The notes beneath the pieces are model-generated. The model saw only the letters and a list, made by a program, of their open reading frames with translations. It ran no database searches and was not told the origin of the DNA. Shown here one piece after another: positions 20-29,302 of a stretch of 64,000 nucleotides of DNA (its first letter is position 1; each line of letters begins with the position of its first letter). The DNA comes from Gemmatimonadota bacterium (GTDB lineage Bacteria; Latescibacterota; UBA2968; UBA8231): contig JABHFS010000001.1 in NCBI GenBank assembly GCA_018672475.1, positions 24,156-88,155 on the forward strand, in the 5' to 3' direction. The position numbers were made by a program, and so were the translations under genes.

Positions 20-1204
20 ATGGCTTTGAGTGATTTTTATGAGAGGTCGACGATCGTGCACGAACATTTACGCGGCAAGATCGGTATAGTTAGCAAGATG
101 CGGATCGAGTCGCAGGATGACTTGTCCATCGCCTATACACCCGGGGTGGCTGGTCCCTGTCTGAAAATCGCGGAAAACGGTGCGCTGGCTCGCGAGTTGA
201 CCATTAAGCGCAATACGGTGGCGGTGGTCACGGATGGTTCGGCGGTATTGGGCTTGGGCAATATCGGCCCGCTGGCGGCGCTGCCGGTGATGGAGGGCAA
301 GGCCCTGTTGTTCAAGGAATTCGCCAATATTGATGCATGGCCGATTTGTCTGGATACGCAAAATGCCGATGAGATCATCGAGACCGTGCGGCGTATTGCG
401 CCGGGTTTCGGTGGGATTAATCTCGAAGATATTTCGGCGCCGCGTTGCTTTGAGGTAGAAAATAGCCTGCAGGATCTGGGGATTCCGGTCTTTCACGATG
501 ATCAACACGGTACGGCGATTGTACTCTTGGCGGGGTTGATTAACGCTTGCCGGGTGCTCGGTCGTGATTCGGCGAGATTGAAGGTGGTGATCAGCGGTGC
601 AGGTGCGGCGGGCACCGCCATCGCGAAACTATTGCGCGGCATTAATGTTACCGACGACGCTTGGGCACCGGTCGAGGATTTGGTTGTCTGCGACTCGCGT
701 GGAGCGATCCATGCCGGTCGCGAGGGGTTGTCGCCGGAAAAACAGGCCCTGCTCGATTATACCAATAGCCAAGGCCACACTGGCAGCGTGCACGAAGTTT
801 TAGAGGGGGCGGATGTTTTTATCGGCGTTAGCAAGGGCGGCTTGTTGGACGGCGATGATATCAAGCGCATGGCCAAAGACCCCATTATTCTGGCGATGGC
901 CAACCCCGAACCCGAAATTATGCCGGATGTGGCGCTGGCGGCCGGGGCGGCGATTGTCGGCACGGGGCGCAGCGACTTCCCGAACCAGGTCAACAATGTG
1001 CTGGCCTTCCCCGGGATCTTCCGTGGGGCCCTCGACGCCGGGGCCGTGGCGATCAATGGGGCGATGAAGATTGCAGCGGCGCATGCGCTAGCCGATGCAG
1101 TCGCTGAGCCGCTTGCCGAGCGCATCCTGCCGCAACCATTGGATCGTTCGGTCGCACCGCTGATCGCCGAGGCGGTGCGCCGGGCGGCGACTAAAAGTCC
1201 TTGA
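20..1204 (+). CDS. NAD(P)-dependent malic enzyme (short form, no PTA domain)
   Basis: Motifs AYTPGVA, VVTDGSAVLGLGNIG, PVMEGKA, INLEDI, FHDDQHGTA, GAGAAG, TGRSDFPNQVNN. Confidence 0.95.
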   Translation: MALSDFYERSTIVHEHLRGKIGIVSKMRIESQDDLSIAYTPGVAGPCLKIAENGALARELTIKRNTVAVVTDGSAVLGLGNIGPLAALPVMEGKALLFKEFANIDAWPICLDTQNADEIIETVRRIAPGFGGINLEDISAPRCFEVENSLQDLGIPVFHDDQHGTAIVLLAGLINACRVLGRDSARLKVVISGAGAAGTAIAKLLRGINVTDDAWAPVEDLVVCDSRGAIHAGREGLSPEKQALLDYTNSQGHTGSVHEVLEGADVFIGVSKGGLLDGDDIKRMAKDPIILAMANPEPEIMPDVALAAGAAIVGTGRSDFPNQVNNVLAFPGIFRGALDAGAVAINGAMKIAAAHALADAVAEPLAERILPQPLDRSVAPLIAEAVRRAATKSP

Positions 1205-1230
1205 CATAATTTGCGATCTGCCGATACTTT
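1201..1230 (+). promoter_or_regulatory. Putative sigma70 promoter of the thrS leader
   Basis: TTGACA at 1201-1206 (overlapping the malic enzyme stop) followed by GATACT/TACTTT 16-18 nt downstream. Confidence 0.55.
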
Positions 1231-1271
1231 GTACGGAACTTAACTGCACTAAATACGGAGGTTACCCCTAG

Positions 1272-1391
1272 ATGTCTGCTCTGTTTCCGGCCGCGCCGCT
1301 ATGGCGCCATGTGTTGTCACCGGCAGAGAAGATGTCTGCCCCATCCATCACTGGCTCGACTACTACCAAGGCGACTACGCGCGCCAAATAG
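1272..1391 (+). CDS. Thr-rich attenuator leader peptide (MSALFPAAPLWRHVLSPAEKMSAPSITGSTTTKATTRAK; alternative start 1332)
   Basis: GGAGGT SD at 1257-1262; six Thr codons in the last 13 sense codons; directly upstream of a terminator and thrS. Confidence 0.8.
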   Translation: MSALFPAAPLWRHVLSPAEKMSAPSITGSTTTKATTRAK

Positions 1392-1418
1392 TATCGACGG
1401 TCACTGGATATTTTCGAT

Positions 1419-1456
1419 CCTCCCCGCTGTCGACTTTTGACAGGGGGGCATTTTTA
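1419..1456 (+). terminator. Attenuator terminator upstream of thrS
   Basis: CCCC-G-CTGTCGA / TTGACAG-GGGG hairpin followed by ATTTTT; left arm can alternatively pair with 1394-1401. Confidence 0.75.
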
Positions 1457-1498
1457 ATGCCTGAAAATTAATAAGTCTACTTGTAATGGGAGTGAAAA

Positions 1499-3490
<1,992 letters not shown>

Positions 3491-3836
3491 AAAATAGCAA
3501 CGCCCTGGAACCATTGTTGGGACTCGACTTGCTGGAAAACGGCGATAGTGACGCGGCGTTCTGGTTTACCGAATTTGATTGCCAGGACGATTGGGTGATG
3601 GGGGGCGATCGCGCGGGGGACTCTCTGGGGGTATTCGATTTTTTCGCGAGTCCCAGTTCGACTTCAAGCTGCGGCAGGGGGACGAAGGTTTGTGAAAAAA
3701 TATCCACTAGGATGACGGCTCGATCGCCGGTGATTGCGGCGGGCCGGTGGCTAATGCCCATTGAAGGGGTTCGAAAATTGGGCTGAGCGATTTACCTTGA
3801 TAGCGAAGGTCCACCAAGGACGCTATTTTAGGGGTT

Positions 3837-4978: not shown

Positions 4979-6109
4979 ATGGATGATCGGGAGAAAAGTA
5001 AAGAAGAGCTCTCTTGGGAACTGACCGCGCTCAAGGTGCGGTTGGCAAAACTGGACTTTATAGAGGCTGAACGCGGTGCGGCTGAGGAAGAGTTACGTCG
5101 GAGCGAAGAGCGTTTTCGCATGGCGGTGGAGTGTTTGGATGAAGGCCTGTTGATCACCGACTTGGACGATGTGGTGCTCTATGTCAATTCACGTATCAGC
5201 GAAATGACCGGCTATGCCCAGGATGAGATGATCGGTCGACCGGCCTATGAGCTTATTCTGCCGTCGGATCAGTGGCCTGATCTCCGGCAACGCAACCAGC
5301 AGCGCAGTGAAGGGCGTTCCGATTGCTCTGAGATGCAGGTGGTGCGCAAGGACGGCAGCCGGTTTTGGATCGAGAGCAATGCGATGCCCTACCTCGATGG
5401 TGCTGGCGAGGTCATCGGCACGCTGGGGGCGATAACTGATATAACACAGCGCAAGGAGGTGGAGCGCCAACTGCAGCAATCGCTGGAGGACAAGGAGGTG
5501 TTGCTCAAGGAAATACACCATCGGGTGAAAAATAATCTCCAGGTTATCTCTAGCTTGCTAGACTTGCAGGCACAGCACTTTTCCGATGACCGGATCCGCG
5601 CCGCTTTCACCGATAGCCAAAATCGGATTCGATCGATGGCGCTGATCCACGAACTGCTCTATCGCTCGACCGATCTGGCGCAGATCGATATGGGCGAATA
5701 CATTCAGGATCTGGCGATGAGCCTGTTTAGCTCCTATGGCGACGAGATCAGCGATGTCGCGCTGCAAACGGACATAACCTCCGTAGTGCTTGATGTAGAC
5801 CAGGCGATGCCCTGCGGTTTTATTGTCAACGAGTTGGTTTCCAATGCGCTGAAATATGCCTTCGCAGATGGGCGCAAGGGTGTGTTGTTTATCGGACTCA
5901 GTGGCGGATCTGGCGATAGCGTAGAGATGGTAGTGCGCGATAATGGTGTGGGCTTGCCGCCCGGCTTCGATTGTCAGCAGTCTACTTCATTGGGGTTGCG
6001 TCTGGTGCATACTTTGGTGGAGCAATTGCGCGGGAAATTACAGGTGGTGGGCGATGGTGGTGCGGAGTTTAAGGTGTGTTTTGCTATAACAAAAAATGAA
6101 TCAAAATAG
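4979..6109 (+). CDS. PAS/PAC sensor histidine kinase (HisKA_2 type)
   Basis: PAS-PAC domain ending DITQRK; H-box EIHHRVKNNLQ; NELVSNALKYAF; DNGVG; SLGL. Confidence 0.93.
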   Translation: MDDREKSKEELSWELTALKVRLAKLDFIEAERGAAEEELRRSEERFRMAVECLDEGLLITDLDDVVLYVNSRISEMTGYAQDEMIGRPAYELILPSDQWPDLRQRNQQRSEGRSDCSEMQVVRKDGSRFWIESNAMPYLDGAGEVIGTLGAITDITQRKEVERQLQQSLEDKEVLLKEIHHRVKNNLQVISSLLDLQAQHFSDDRIRAAFTDSQNRIRSMALIHELLYRSTDLAQIDMGEYIQDLAMSLFSSYGDEISDVALQTDITSVVLDVDQAMPCGFIVNELVSNALKYAFADGRKGVLFIGLSGGSGDSVEMVVRDNGVGLPPGFDCQQSTSLGLRLVHTLVEQLRGKLQVVGDGGAEFKVCFAITKNESK

Positions 6110-6125
6110 AGGAGAGGGTAGATCC

Positions 6126-7895
6126 ATGAGAATGAGCCGGCTTTTTAGCCAGACCTTGCGCGATATAACCGCCGACGCCGAAGTGGCGAGCCACCAGCTA
6201 TTGTTGAGGGCGGGTTTTATCCGTCAATTGGCCAGCGGGATCTTTAGCTATTTACCGCTAGGGCATAAAGCCCTACGCAAGGTAGAGGAGATTATCCGCC
6301 GGGAGATGGACGCGATCGGGGGGCAGGAGATCACGATGCCCGTGGTACACCCGGCCGAAATTTGGCAACAGACCGGTCGCTGGTACGAGGTCGGCTCGGA
6401 GATGAGTCGTTTTAAGGATAAGAACGACCGCGATATGGTCCTGGCGATGACGCATGAGGAAGTCGTCGCCGACCTAGTCAGCCGCGAGATTCATTCCTAC
6501 AAGCAATTGCCCCAGTTGGTTTATCAGATCCAGACGAAATGGCGCGATGATCCTCGGCCCCGTTCCGGCCTTATCCGGGTCCGCGAGTTCACGATGAAGG
6601 ACTCCTATAGCCTCGACGCTGATTGGGAAGGCTTAGACAAGCAGTACCGGGTCCACTATCAGAGCTATTTCAATATTTTCAACCGCTGTGGCCTCGATGT
6701 GATCGCGGTCAGTTCCGATACCGGGATGATGGGCGGCGAGATGGCGCACGAGTATATGTATTTGACGCCGATCGGCGAAGATACTTTGCTGCTATGTGAT
6801 GGCTGCGGTTATGCCGCAAATCGCCAGATTGCGACCTTCGCCAAAAAAGCTAATCCGAAAGAAGAGCCCGCTGTACAGGAGAAGATCGCCACGCCGGGTA
6901 CGGCGACCATCGATGATTTGGCCAGGTTGCTCGACATGCCCGCCAGTAAGACTGCCAAGGCGGTGTTTATGATGGCGACCGTCGGCAAGGGCGAGGAGAA
7001 GGAAGACAAGTTTATCCTAGCCGTTGTGCGCGGTGATATGGAGGTCAACGAGACCAAATTGGCCAATGCCGTTGGTGCGTTAGAGATGTGGCCGGCGAAT
7101 GAGGCGGAGATTCGCGCGGTTGGCTCGGAGCCGGGGTATGGTTCGCCGATCGGGGTCAAGGGGGCGCTGATTATCGTCGATGACGCGGTGGCCTCAGCGA
7201 CTAATTTGGTCGCCGGTGCCAATGAGCCGGGTTTTCACGTCAAAAATGTGAATTGTGGCCGGGATTACGAGGCCGAGCAAATCGTCGATATCGCCTCGGC
7301 ACGCGAGGGGGACGGTTGCCCGCGCTGCGAGGCAGCGCTAAGGGCGGTACGCGGAGTTGAGACGGGCAATATCTTCCAGCTCGGCACCAAGTTTACCGAG
7401 GCGCTGGGTGGGAATTTTCTCGACGCCAATGGCAAGGCGCAGTCGGTAGTGATGGGTTCGTACGGGATCGGCGTCGGGCGGATGTTGGCCTGTATCGCTG
7501 AGGAATACAACGACGACAACGGGCTGGTCTGGCCGATTACGGTCGCACCCTTCCAGGTGCATATCGTATTATTGGCCAAGGGCGAAGGCGAGGCGCAGGA
7601 CGTGGCGGAAAAACTCTATGGTGAATTGACAGGGCGCGGGCTCGATGTGCTCCTGGACGATCGCAAAGATAACCCGGGCGTCAAATTCAAGGACGCCGAT
7701 CTTATCGGCATACCGGTGCGGGTGACGGTCGGCGACCGCGGTTTGAAAAACGGGATCGTCGAGTTCAAGTTGCGCCGGGAAGAGCAGCGGCTGGAGATAC
7801 CGGTCGAAGATGCGTTTGAGCACGTCGTCGCGGCGGTCGAAGGTTTGTATAATGAGCTGGAAGAGCGGGTCGTCGAAGTCGAATACGAAAAATAA
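6126..7895 (+). CDS. proS: Proline--tRNA ligase (with editing insertion)
   Basis: MRMSRLF start after AGGAGAGG SD; SHQLLLRAG, RPRSGLIRVREFTMKDSYS, GSYGIGVGR, DADLIGIP. Confidence 0.97.
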   Translation: MRMSRLFSQTLRDITADAEVASHQLLLRAGFIRQLASGIFSYLPLGHKALRKVEEIIRREMDAIGGQEITMPVVHPAEIWQQTGRWYEVGSEMSRFKDKNDRDMVLAMTHEEVVADLVSREIHSYKQLPQLVYQIQTKWRDDPRPRSGLIRVREFTMKDSYSLDADWEGLDKQYRVHYQSYFNIFNRCGLDVIAVSSDTGMMGGEMAHEYMYLTPIGEDTLLLCDGCGYAANRQIATFAKKANPKEEPAVQEKIATPGTATIDDLARLLDMPASKTAKAVFMMATVGKGEEKEDKFILAVVRGDMEVNETKLANAVGALEMWPANEAEIRAVGSEPGYGSPIGVKGALIIVDDAVASATNLVAGANEPGFHVKNVNCGRDYEAEQIVDIASAREGDGCPRCEAALRAVRGVETGNIFQLGTKFTEALGGNFLDANGKAQSVVMGSYGIGVGRMLACIAEEYNDDNGLVWPITVAPFQVHIVLLAKGEGEAQDVAEKLYGELTGRGLDVLLDDRKDNPGVKFKDADLIGIPVRVTVGDRGLKNGIVEFKLRREEQRLEIPVEDAFEHVVAAVEGLYNELEERVVEVEYEK

Positions 7896-29135: not shown

Positions 29136-29302
29136 GGTCCATCTTGGGATAATCCCCTTGCTCATGCACGCATCGCTGCGCGATAGGCGCCCTGGGGGAA
29201 CTTGGAACACACTACTGTGTTCCTCCGAGGGCAGTCCCCGATTTCACTGTCCTGTGAAATCGGGGACTGCAAATCCGCTGTGGGGATATCCTCAGACGGA
29301 CC
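29136..29302. repeat. Nested palindromic (REP/MITE-like) element
   Basis: Imperfect outer IR 29136-29157 / 29282-29302; perfect 17-bp inner stem 29231-29247 / 29254-29270. Confidence 0.7.

Follow-up and report, generated by a model that had tools for sequence, protein, structure and literature searches.

Control by a leader peptide is textbook attenuation for amino-acid biosynthesis in Proteobacteria. For the genes of aminoacyl-tRNA synthetases, the examples on record are mainly pheST together with a handful from actinobacteria. In Escherichia coli, the leader peptide thrL controls the threonine biosynthesis genes and carries isoleucine codons as well, and threonyl-tRNA synthetase (ThrRS) represses its own gene, thrS, by binding a tRNA-like operator and blocking ribosome binding. 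In Bacillus subtilis, thrS is preceded by a T-box, which reads uncharged tRNA directly and needs no translation. Here, we describe a leader upstream of thrS in a stretch of 64,000 nucleotides (nt) from an uncultured marine bacterium filed as Gemmatimonadota bacterium (Latescibacterota in GTDB; assembly GCA_018672475.1, contig JABHFS010000001.1, positions 24,156 to 88,155); this whole stretch is called the window below, and positions refer to it. From sequence analysis and comparison with relatives, we consider it probable, at about 85%, that positions 1201–1498 are a classical ribosome-mediated (leader-peptide) transcription attenuator controlling the single thrS gene.

Comparison with the described systems places the element among leader-peptide switches. 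Like E. coli pheST with its leader pheM, it would set a synthetase gene under a leader peptide rich in the cognate residue and under a choice between terminator and antiterminator, and the molecule sensed would likewise be the enzyme's own product. It differs from pheST in the amino acid, in its longer leader, and in a 5' hairpin that sequesters the leader's own Shine–Dalgarno (SD) site and start codon. No relation in sequence to pheST was noticed, though the two were not compared directly. With E. coli thrL, it shares a run of Thr codons in a short open reading frame (ORF), alternative hairpins, and an intrinsic terminator. However, thrL serves biosynthesis genes rather than thrS, and its Rfam model is unmatched here: a search of 1100–1600 at E-values up to 10 returned no match to Thr_leader (RF00506) or to other leader families. 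The B. subtilis T-box also responds to whether tRNA(Thr) is charged, and its output is likewise antitermination in the thrS leader, but the same search gave no covariance-model match to the T-box riboswitch (RF00230). The feature shared with the E. coli thrS operator is feedback on thrS through the leader RNA. By eye, we found nothing beside the ribosome binding site of thrS that resembles a conserved anticodon arm; the single hairpin conserved near the gene has a variable loop with no NGU motif and stands clear of that site, 43 nt upstream of the ATG (18 nt in the majority of relatives).

Precedents for synthetase genes do exist. Attenuators of the classical type are described upstream of trpS and leuS in Streptomyces and of pheST in gamma-proteobacteria, with pheST cited as the model for synthetase attenuators (PMC1262725). 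In bacilli, hisS paralogues are preceded by His leaders (PMC2965389). In Streptomyces lividans, a leaderless thrL whose peptide has only two Thr lies upstream of thrS; its authors found no clear intrinsic terminator, and it was proposed as a threonine-dependent attenuator of thrS (PMC8079986). The trpS, leuS, and alaS leaders of Streptomyces are comparable cases. S. lividans resembles the window in having a short leader ORF upstream of thrS, and its leaderless form is also that of most of the window's genus. The leaders described here, from another phylum, differ in their 6–13 Thr, their clear terminator, and their co-varying antiterminator. Searches of the open-access literature turned up neither a Thr leader of thrS in this lineage or in Planctomycetes nor a Gln leader of glnS or a Tyr leader of tyrS. 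The preliminary description of the window, made from the letters alone, had called the strategy less common and perhaps undescribed in this lineage. The second part agrees with what we found in the literature; the first has to be tempered by the precedents above for pheST, for Streptomyces trpS and leuS, and for thrL–thrS. On the sequence evidence, the thrS leader is real, and it is a predicted switch of the classical kind that falls in no Rfam leader family and for which we found no report in this uncultured marine lineage.

The element occupies the 294-nt spacer between a malic-enzyme-like gene (20–1204; NF009501) and thrS. The identity of thrS is firm (TIGR00418, 700 bits against a cut-off of 384, E = 2.4e-210), and no other thrS was found in the genome, a 6.6-Mb assembly in which the stretch is contig C160; no second copy of its leader was found there. 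The promoter matches 10 of 12 consensus positions, is the sole promoter-like site in 1000–3800, and has a retained homologue in relatives. An SD site (GGAGG or AGGAG) stands before the leader ORF in all six sequences of the alignment discussed below for the 5' hairpin, and thrS has its own SD, GGGAG, 9 nt ahead of its ATG. Every feature of a classical leader-peptide attenuator that can be computed was found in this arrangement: a short ORF that has start signals of its own and follows directly on a promoter, ahead of thrS; a cluster of codons for Thr, the amino acid that matches the gene; a predicted intrinsic terminator between that ORF and thrS; and an antiterminator that shares a strand with the terminator and that, in folds with a masked ribosome, is exposed or covered according to the ribosome's position. 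The coordinates are collected in Table 1. The promoter, the GGAGGT site, the leader ORF with its six Thr codons, and both pairings given in the preliminary description were all recovered, and the terminator that it had drawn at 1419–1456 is essentially the stem at 1422–1448 followed by the T-run.

Table 1. Features of the thrS leader and of the two other candidate synthetase leaders; positions are those of the window unless another contig is named.
Feature	Position	Strand	Details
Sigma-70-type promoter	1201–1228	+	-35 TTGACA 1201–1206; 16-nt spacer; -10 GATACT 1223–1228
SD site of leader ORF	1257–1262	+	GGAGGT, 9 nt 5' of ATG; seen in sequence
Long 5' hairpin P0	1257–1342	+	SD 1257–1262 with 1338–1342; start-codon region 1270–1277 with 1329–1336
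Leader ORF	1272–1391	+	39 codons; product MSALFPAAPLWRHVLSPAEKMSAPSITGSTTTKATTRAK; ATG 1272; stop TAG 1389–1391
Regulatory Thr codons	1350–1379	+	Codons at 1350, 1359, 1362, 1365, 1374, 1377; region 1 (1356–1365) lies on them
Helix 1:2	1356–1365 with 1389–1397	+	TCGACTACTA with TAGTATCGA; 9 bp, one bulge, -8.1 kcal/mol
Region 2, antiterminator strand	1393–1409	+	Starts 2 nt past the stop codon; core TCGACGGT 1394–1401
Helix 2:3, antiterminator	1394–1401 with 1426–1433	+	TCGACGGT with GCTGTCGA; 8 bp including two G-U
Intrinsic terminator (predicted)	1422–1455	+	5' arm 1422–1433 (region 3); 3' arm 1437–1448 (region 4); T-run TTTTT 1451–1455
thrS, threonine–tRNA ligase, regulated gene	1499–3490	+	663 aa; TIGR00418; Pfam PF00587
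Gln-rich leader ORF, then terminator, upstream of glnS	L116:1215–1292 (= G000:C149:3111–3188)	+	MNALYQQQRQQQRIYDNARRRFLHW; glnS TIGR00440
Tyr-rich leader ORF upstream of tyrS	L160:2847–2912 (= G000:C160:92491–92556)	minus	MTMHTLHVYRYYYYTLSTRGV; tyrS TIGR00234; about 4.3 kb past the window end

The Thr codons of the leader (ACT four times, ACC and ACG once each) all fall within its last 14 residues. Six Thr in a 14-residue span of an ATG-started ORF were reached in only 6 of 5000 dinucleotide shuffles of the 294-nt spacer, and Thr makes up 5.1% of the residues in long ORFs of the genome. Codon choice is also distinctive, with ACT accounting for 82 of the 234 Thr codons (35%) across 25 leaders versus 12.3% of the Thr codons in the genome's long ORFs. 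From these parts, we infer translation of the leader ORF, stalling within it, and termination with its relief, as follows. Judging from the position of the promoter, transcription would begin near 1235, and a ribosome would load on the 39-codon ORF while RNA polymerase proceeds. When Thr-tRNA(Thr) is plentiful, the ribosome would reach the TAG at 1389 and its footprint would cover region 2 (1394–1401); region 3 (1422–1433) would then pair with region 4 (1437–1448), and transcription would end at the T-run (1451–1455). When charged tRNA(Thr) is scarce, the ribosome would stall on the Thr codons (1350–1379) and leave region 2 free to pair with region 3 before region 4 is made, so that the terminator would be blocked and polymerase would enter thrS. 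Such a loop would be homeostatic, because the molecule sensed is the product of ThrRS.

Folding calculations are consistent with this sequence of events. The terminator, helix 3:4, has a GC-rich stem of -18 to -20 kcal/mol; a simple scanner did not list it because a CA parts the stem from the T-run and the stem has a G-G mismatch. Helix 2:3 reaches -11.5 kcal/mol for its core and -13.5 kcal/mol with three more pairs. In the full-length minimum-free-energy fold, the terminator appears whichever Thr codon is masked, as is expected of a switch that works kinetically. Since the full-length fold does not discriminate, we relied on RNAs truncated before the 3' arm of the terminator. In these, helix 2:3 belonged to the minimum-energy structure for all five tested positions of the masked ribosome on Thr codons (1359–1377). 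It was lost once the footprint was moved to the stop codon, since region 2 starts just 2 nt downstream of the TAG and is then covered. Four relatives (L012, L007, L021, L003) behaved as the window does; two others (L022, L004) lost helix 2:3 at some Thr positions. Masking a ribosome footprint in truncated RNAs gives what an attenuator model needs. The idea that stalling on Thr codons frees the antiterminator and induces ThrRS, put forward in the preliminary description, gains support from these folds and from the conservation of the leader with thrS.

That conservation is extensive within the genus. In all 25 genus loci first examined, an ATG-started ORF of 23–39 codons with 4–13 Thr lies upstream of thrS, with 4–12 of the Thr in its last 16 residues, and it is followed in the same order by the stop codon, a CGACGG box, the terminator CCCGCTGTCG...GACAGCGGG, and a T-run. 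The box is nearly invariant in 26 sequences. The Thr run, by comparison, varies in length by whole codons, and its codons change among ACC, ACT, ACG, and ACA while remaining Thr. To extend the comparison to the order, we used a fixed rule: at least four Thr in 10 residues, with the stop codon no more than 90 nt before a terminator-like hairpin and within 450 nt upstream of the gene. Upstream of thrS, 51 of 75 genomes of the order pass, comprising all 31 of this genus and 20 of 44 from 17 other genera (eight genera with at least one pass). The same Thr rule applied as a control upstream of glnS and tyrS was passed by 2/25 and 0/24 loci, respectively. The leader ORF, its Thr codons, and the terminator have stayed with thrS throughout the genus and in much of the family. 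One might ask whether the ORF instead encodes a functional micropeptide whose Thr richness serves the peptide itself. It is conserved and in frame in 25/25 genus loci, as such a peptide would be. However, outside the Thr run, the peptides of two subgroups are unrelated, the run itself ranges from 4 to 13 Thr, and the peptides of Phycisphaerales described below share only the Thr run, which makes a micropeptide highly improbable.

The arms of the two competing helices also vary together. Among 23 sequences of eight genera, 97.0% of the cells of the terminator alignment are paired, and three pairs changed on both sides, in 15 cells, a result that none of 500 shuffles reached. For the antiterminator in the same sample, the box CGRYGGYGG set against the 5' arm CCRCYGYCG gives 86.5% paired cells, as opposed to 27–68% in slid controls. 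Two of its pairs changed on both sides, in five cells; 4 of 500 shuffles reached that, a count that overstates the support because the sequences are related and that comes from a family-wide alignment anchored on a box that we chose ourselves. Genus by genus, the box mimics the 3' arm of the terminator. The unpaired antiterminator cells come mostly from the window's own genus, where only six to eight of the nine pairs form. Covarying stems, which had been proposed as a check of the attenuator, are accordingly present for terminator and antiterminator across the eight genera, but neither within the genus nor for helix 1:2 between subgroups. Computation and comparison thus show the elements themselves and their geometry, their retention alongside thrS, and the coordinated change of antiterminator and terminator.

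Besides the relatedness of the sequences and the anchoring just mentioned, several results weigh against an attenuator. The antiterminator is weaker than the terminator it must outcompete (-13.5 vs -18.2 kcal/mol), and its duplex energy in the window is only moderately better than that of shuffles, 7 of 300 of which reached it; in other genera, the median p-value for this comparison is 0.07, with 8 of 20 below 0.05. The fold of the whole leader is no better than that of shuffled sequences (z = -1.63). Within the genus, the antiterminator has no pair changed on both sides and the terminator has two, both from one sequence, because both helices are almost invariant there, and helix 1:2 is not retained between subgroups. 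At the level of the order, 24 of the 75 genomes fail the fixed rule and several genera show nothing, and L095 and L265 have an otherwise homologous leader with only two or three Thr. Finally, the T-run of the window consists of only five T and is parted from the stem by CA, and one genus of the family shows that the hairpin can exist apart from the switch: of the four genomes examined there, three have a similar hairpin directly behind the promoter and no leader ORF. These last two points would fit a different output, in which the Thr-rich ORF is translated and senses Thr-tRNA but acts on Rho access, mRNA stability, or thrS translation, the hairpin being mainly a stabilizer or a processing site. 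We regard this as unlikely, though less so than the other alternatives considered here. A hairpin followed by a T-run is present in every leader-bearing sequence aligned, and the hairpin does not overlap the SD or start codon of thrS. Furthermore, the competing box that mimics the 3' arm is kept and varies with that arm, which is the signature of a terminator–antiterminator pair.

RNA assemblies add weak hints. Contigs from four metatranscriptome runs represent the stretch and cover the leader. In three runs, contigs begin at 1251, 1267, or 1268, a weak hint of a start near the promoter, and the downstream ends of contigs fall at 1444 and 1446 for two studies and at 1433 for a third, which is a weak hint at most; one contig bridges 1268–1693. 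Gaps in contig cover in some runs were given no weight. Two further points against the attenuator belong here: contigs cannot show RNA ends or levels, and breaks at a hairpin may be assembly artefacts; and one RNA-library contig extends from the upstream gene as far as 1446 and may reflect read-through or DNA. That contig, together with the place of the hairpin downstream of the malic-enzyme gene (stop at 1204), is what one would expect if the hairpin and T-run were the terminator of that gene and the Thr-rich ORF a chance occurrence. However, a promoter sits between that gene and the ORF, and the run of Thr arose in just 6/5000 shuffles. The upstream neighbour is the malic-enzyme gene in the window's subgroup and other sequence elsewhere, and thrS keeps its ORF, box, and terminator there too. 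Thr enrichment upstream of thrS in 51/75 genomes versus 2/25 and 0/24 control regions likewise argues against chance. An origin as a malic-enzyme terminator is already contradicted by comparison, and we give it next to no weight.

How the leader ORF is started distinguishes two architectures. In the window's subgroup (five loci), the ORF has an SD, and in the window it follows a 5' untranslated region (UTR) of about 37 nt; in the long hairpin P0, the SD and start codon are base-paired to the central part of the ORF. P0 is seen in the single-sequence fold and also in the consensus of six sequences from three genera, where 91.1% of the cells of its 28 pairs are paired (41–51% in slid controls) and seven pairs changed on both sides, which 1 of 500 shuffles reached; these counts lean towards P0 because the structure was derived from the same alignment. 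The hairpin might ensure that only the first, co-transcriptionally loaded ribosome translates the leader, or it might pause the polymerase; both are guesses. The other architecture was found in 25 genomes of the genus (L005–L021, L023–L025, L200, L211, L214, L222, L224, L226). Their promoter is homologous to that of the window, and the leader ORF begins 6–7 nt past the -10 box and lacks any SD-like sequence. In these genomes, the Thr leader peptide is thus probably translated from a leaderless transcript.

Some relatives lack the ORF. In the other genus of the family mentioned above for its hairpin (L033, L034, L248, L250, L253), the leader ORF is absent and a terminator-like hairpin lies directly behind the promoter, followed by an interrupted T-run and then a strong SD, an arrangement that resembles an attenuator that has decayed or been repurposed. 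In other families of the class (L028–L030, L186–L195), thrS has no Thr-rich ORF, and its promoter instead precedes a strongly conserved 5' UTR, about 125 nt long, with a hairpin and T-run at its end; in one of these families, the T-run abuts the thrS ATG and there is no SD. These UTRs had no Rfam match and vary too little for covariation to be assessed. They may represent an undescribed riboregulator that does not rely on a leader peptide. A sensor independent of the leader peptide therefore probably exists nearby in the tree, and a factor other than the ribosome could in principle act on the leader RNA of the window as well, be it ThrRS on a tRNA-like operator, uncharged tRNA(Thr) in the manner of a T-box, or a small ligand. 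For the window, however, we find this very unlikely. Neither a T-box nor any other meaningful Rfam match emerged from the search of 1100–1600 reported above, the terminator loop varies (GACTTTT, GGCTCCAAT, ACCAAG, and others) with no NGU anticodon-like loop, and conservation lies in a reading frame with Thr codons rather than in a structured aptamer.

The leader-peptide attenuator proposed for thrS may not stand alone. We located 20 aminoacyl-tRNA synthetase genes in the genome, and three of them, thrS, glnS, and tyrS, are preceded by a cognate leader and a terminator; inspection of the remaining 17 found no cognate leader. For example, proS (window 6095–7892) directly follows a sensor-kinase-like ORF, with no Pro-rich leader and no terminator upstream. 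Within the Gln leader ORF, the segment CGCGGCGG can, judged by eye, pair with the 5' arm of the terminator; this leader is present in 4 of 25 genus loci. The Tyr leader has its own promoter-like site and terminator, and a related ORF with at least three Tyr in eight residues is found in 21 of 24 genus loci. The glnS and tyrS loci had no Rfam match at E-values up to 0.1.

We also compared 80 thrS loci from other lineages, among which 12 labelled Phycisphaerales had upstream DNA. Seven of these 12 (L070, L077, L080, L087, L088, L089, L102) have a short ORF with a Thr run before thrS, and a terminator was found after six of the seven. Their runs contain 5–9 Thr, including eight consecutive ones, and the peptides (e.g., MSQKTTTTTTTTSPD) are unrelated in sequence to the leader of the window. 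In other phyla, the Thr-rich frames of L044, L053, L068, and L086 sit at the ends of long frames.

Taken jointly, these observations suggest a broader reading, to which we give even odds. An uncultured marine family would control several synthetase genes by cognate leader peptides (thrS and tyrS genus-wide, glnS in one subgroup), as T-boxes do in Firmicutes, and its Gln- and Tyr-sensing leaders would be the first such leaders of synthetase genes. The ancestral thrS leader would have carried P0, locking the SD and start codon for one co-transcriptional ribosome, and would have been replaced in most of the genus by a leaderless ORF, and Phycisphaerae would have reached the thrS design independently. 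The interest of the system would lie mainly in this breadth, with three synthetase genes (thrS, tyrS, and glnS), two architectures, and convergence in another phylum. The pattern suggests that sensing of tRNA charging by the ribosome is common and under-annotated for synthetases outside the model phyla. Consequently, short ORFs of this type should not be annotated as hypothetical proteins, nor should such terminators be taken for the ends of upstream genes. The family also offers a natural series for the evolution of attenuators, with leaders that have an SD or are leaderless, that contain from 4 to 13 Thr codons, or that have lost the ORF.

A genome-wide scan for short ORFs with at least five identical residues in eight, followed by a terminator and a long ORF, returned 63 candidates. 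Thr-run matches on three contigs were set aside: those on C125 and C40 are an alternative frame of Asp-rich coding sequence in ORFs of 949 and 881 aa, and the one on C2 lies inside a long open frame. A conserved motif shared by the upstream regions of gluS and a serS- or glyS-like gene was likewise discarded as a synthetase-specific RNA because it is dispersed over the genome in about 40 copies. This repeat is about 100 nt long, its copies are 71–93% identical, and one of them lies in the window at about 29206–29272 (G000:C160:53361–53427).

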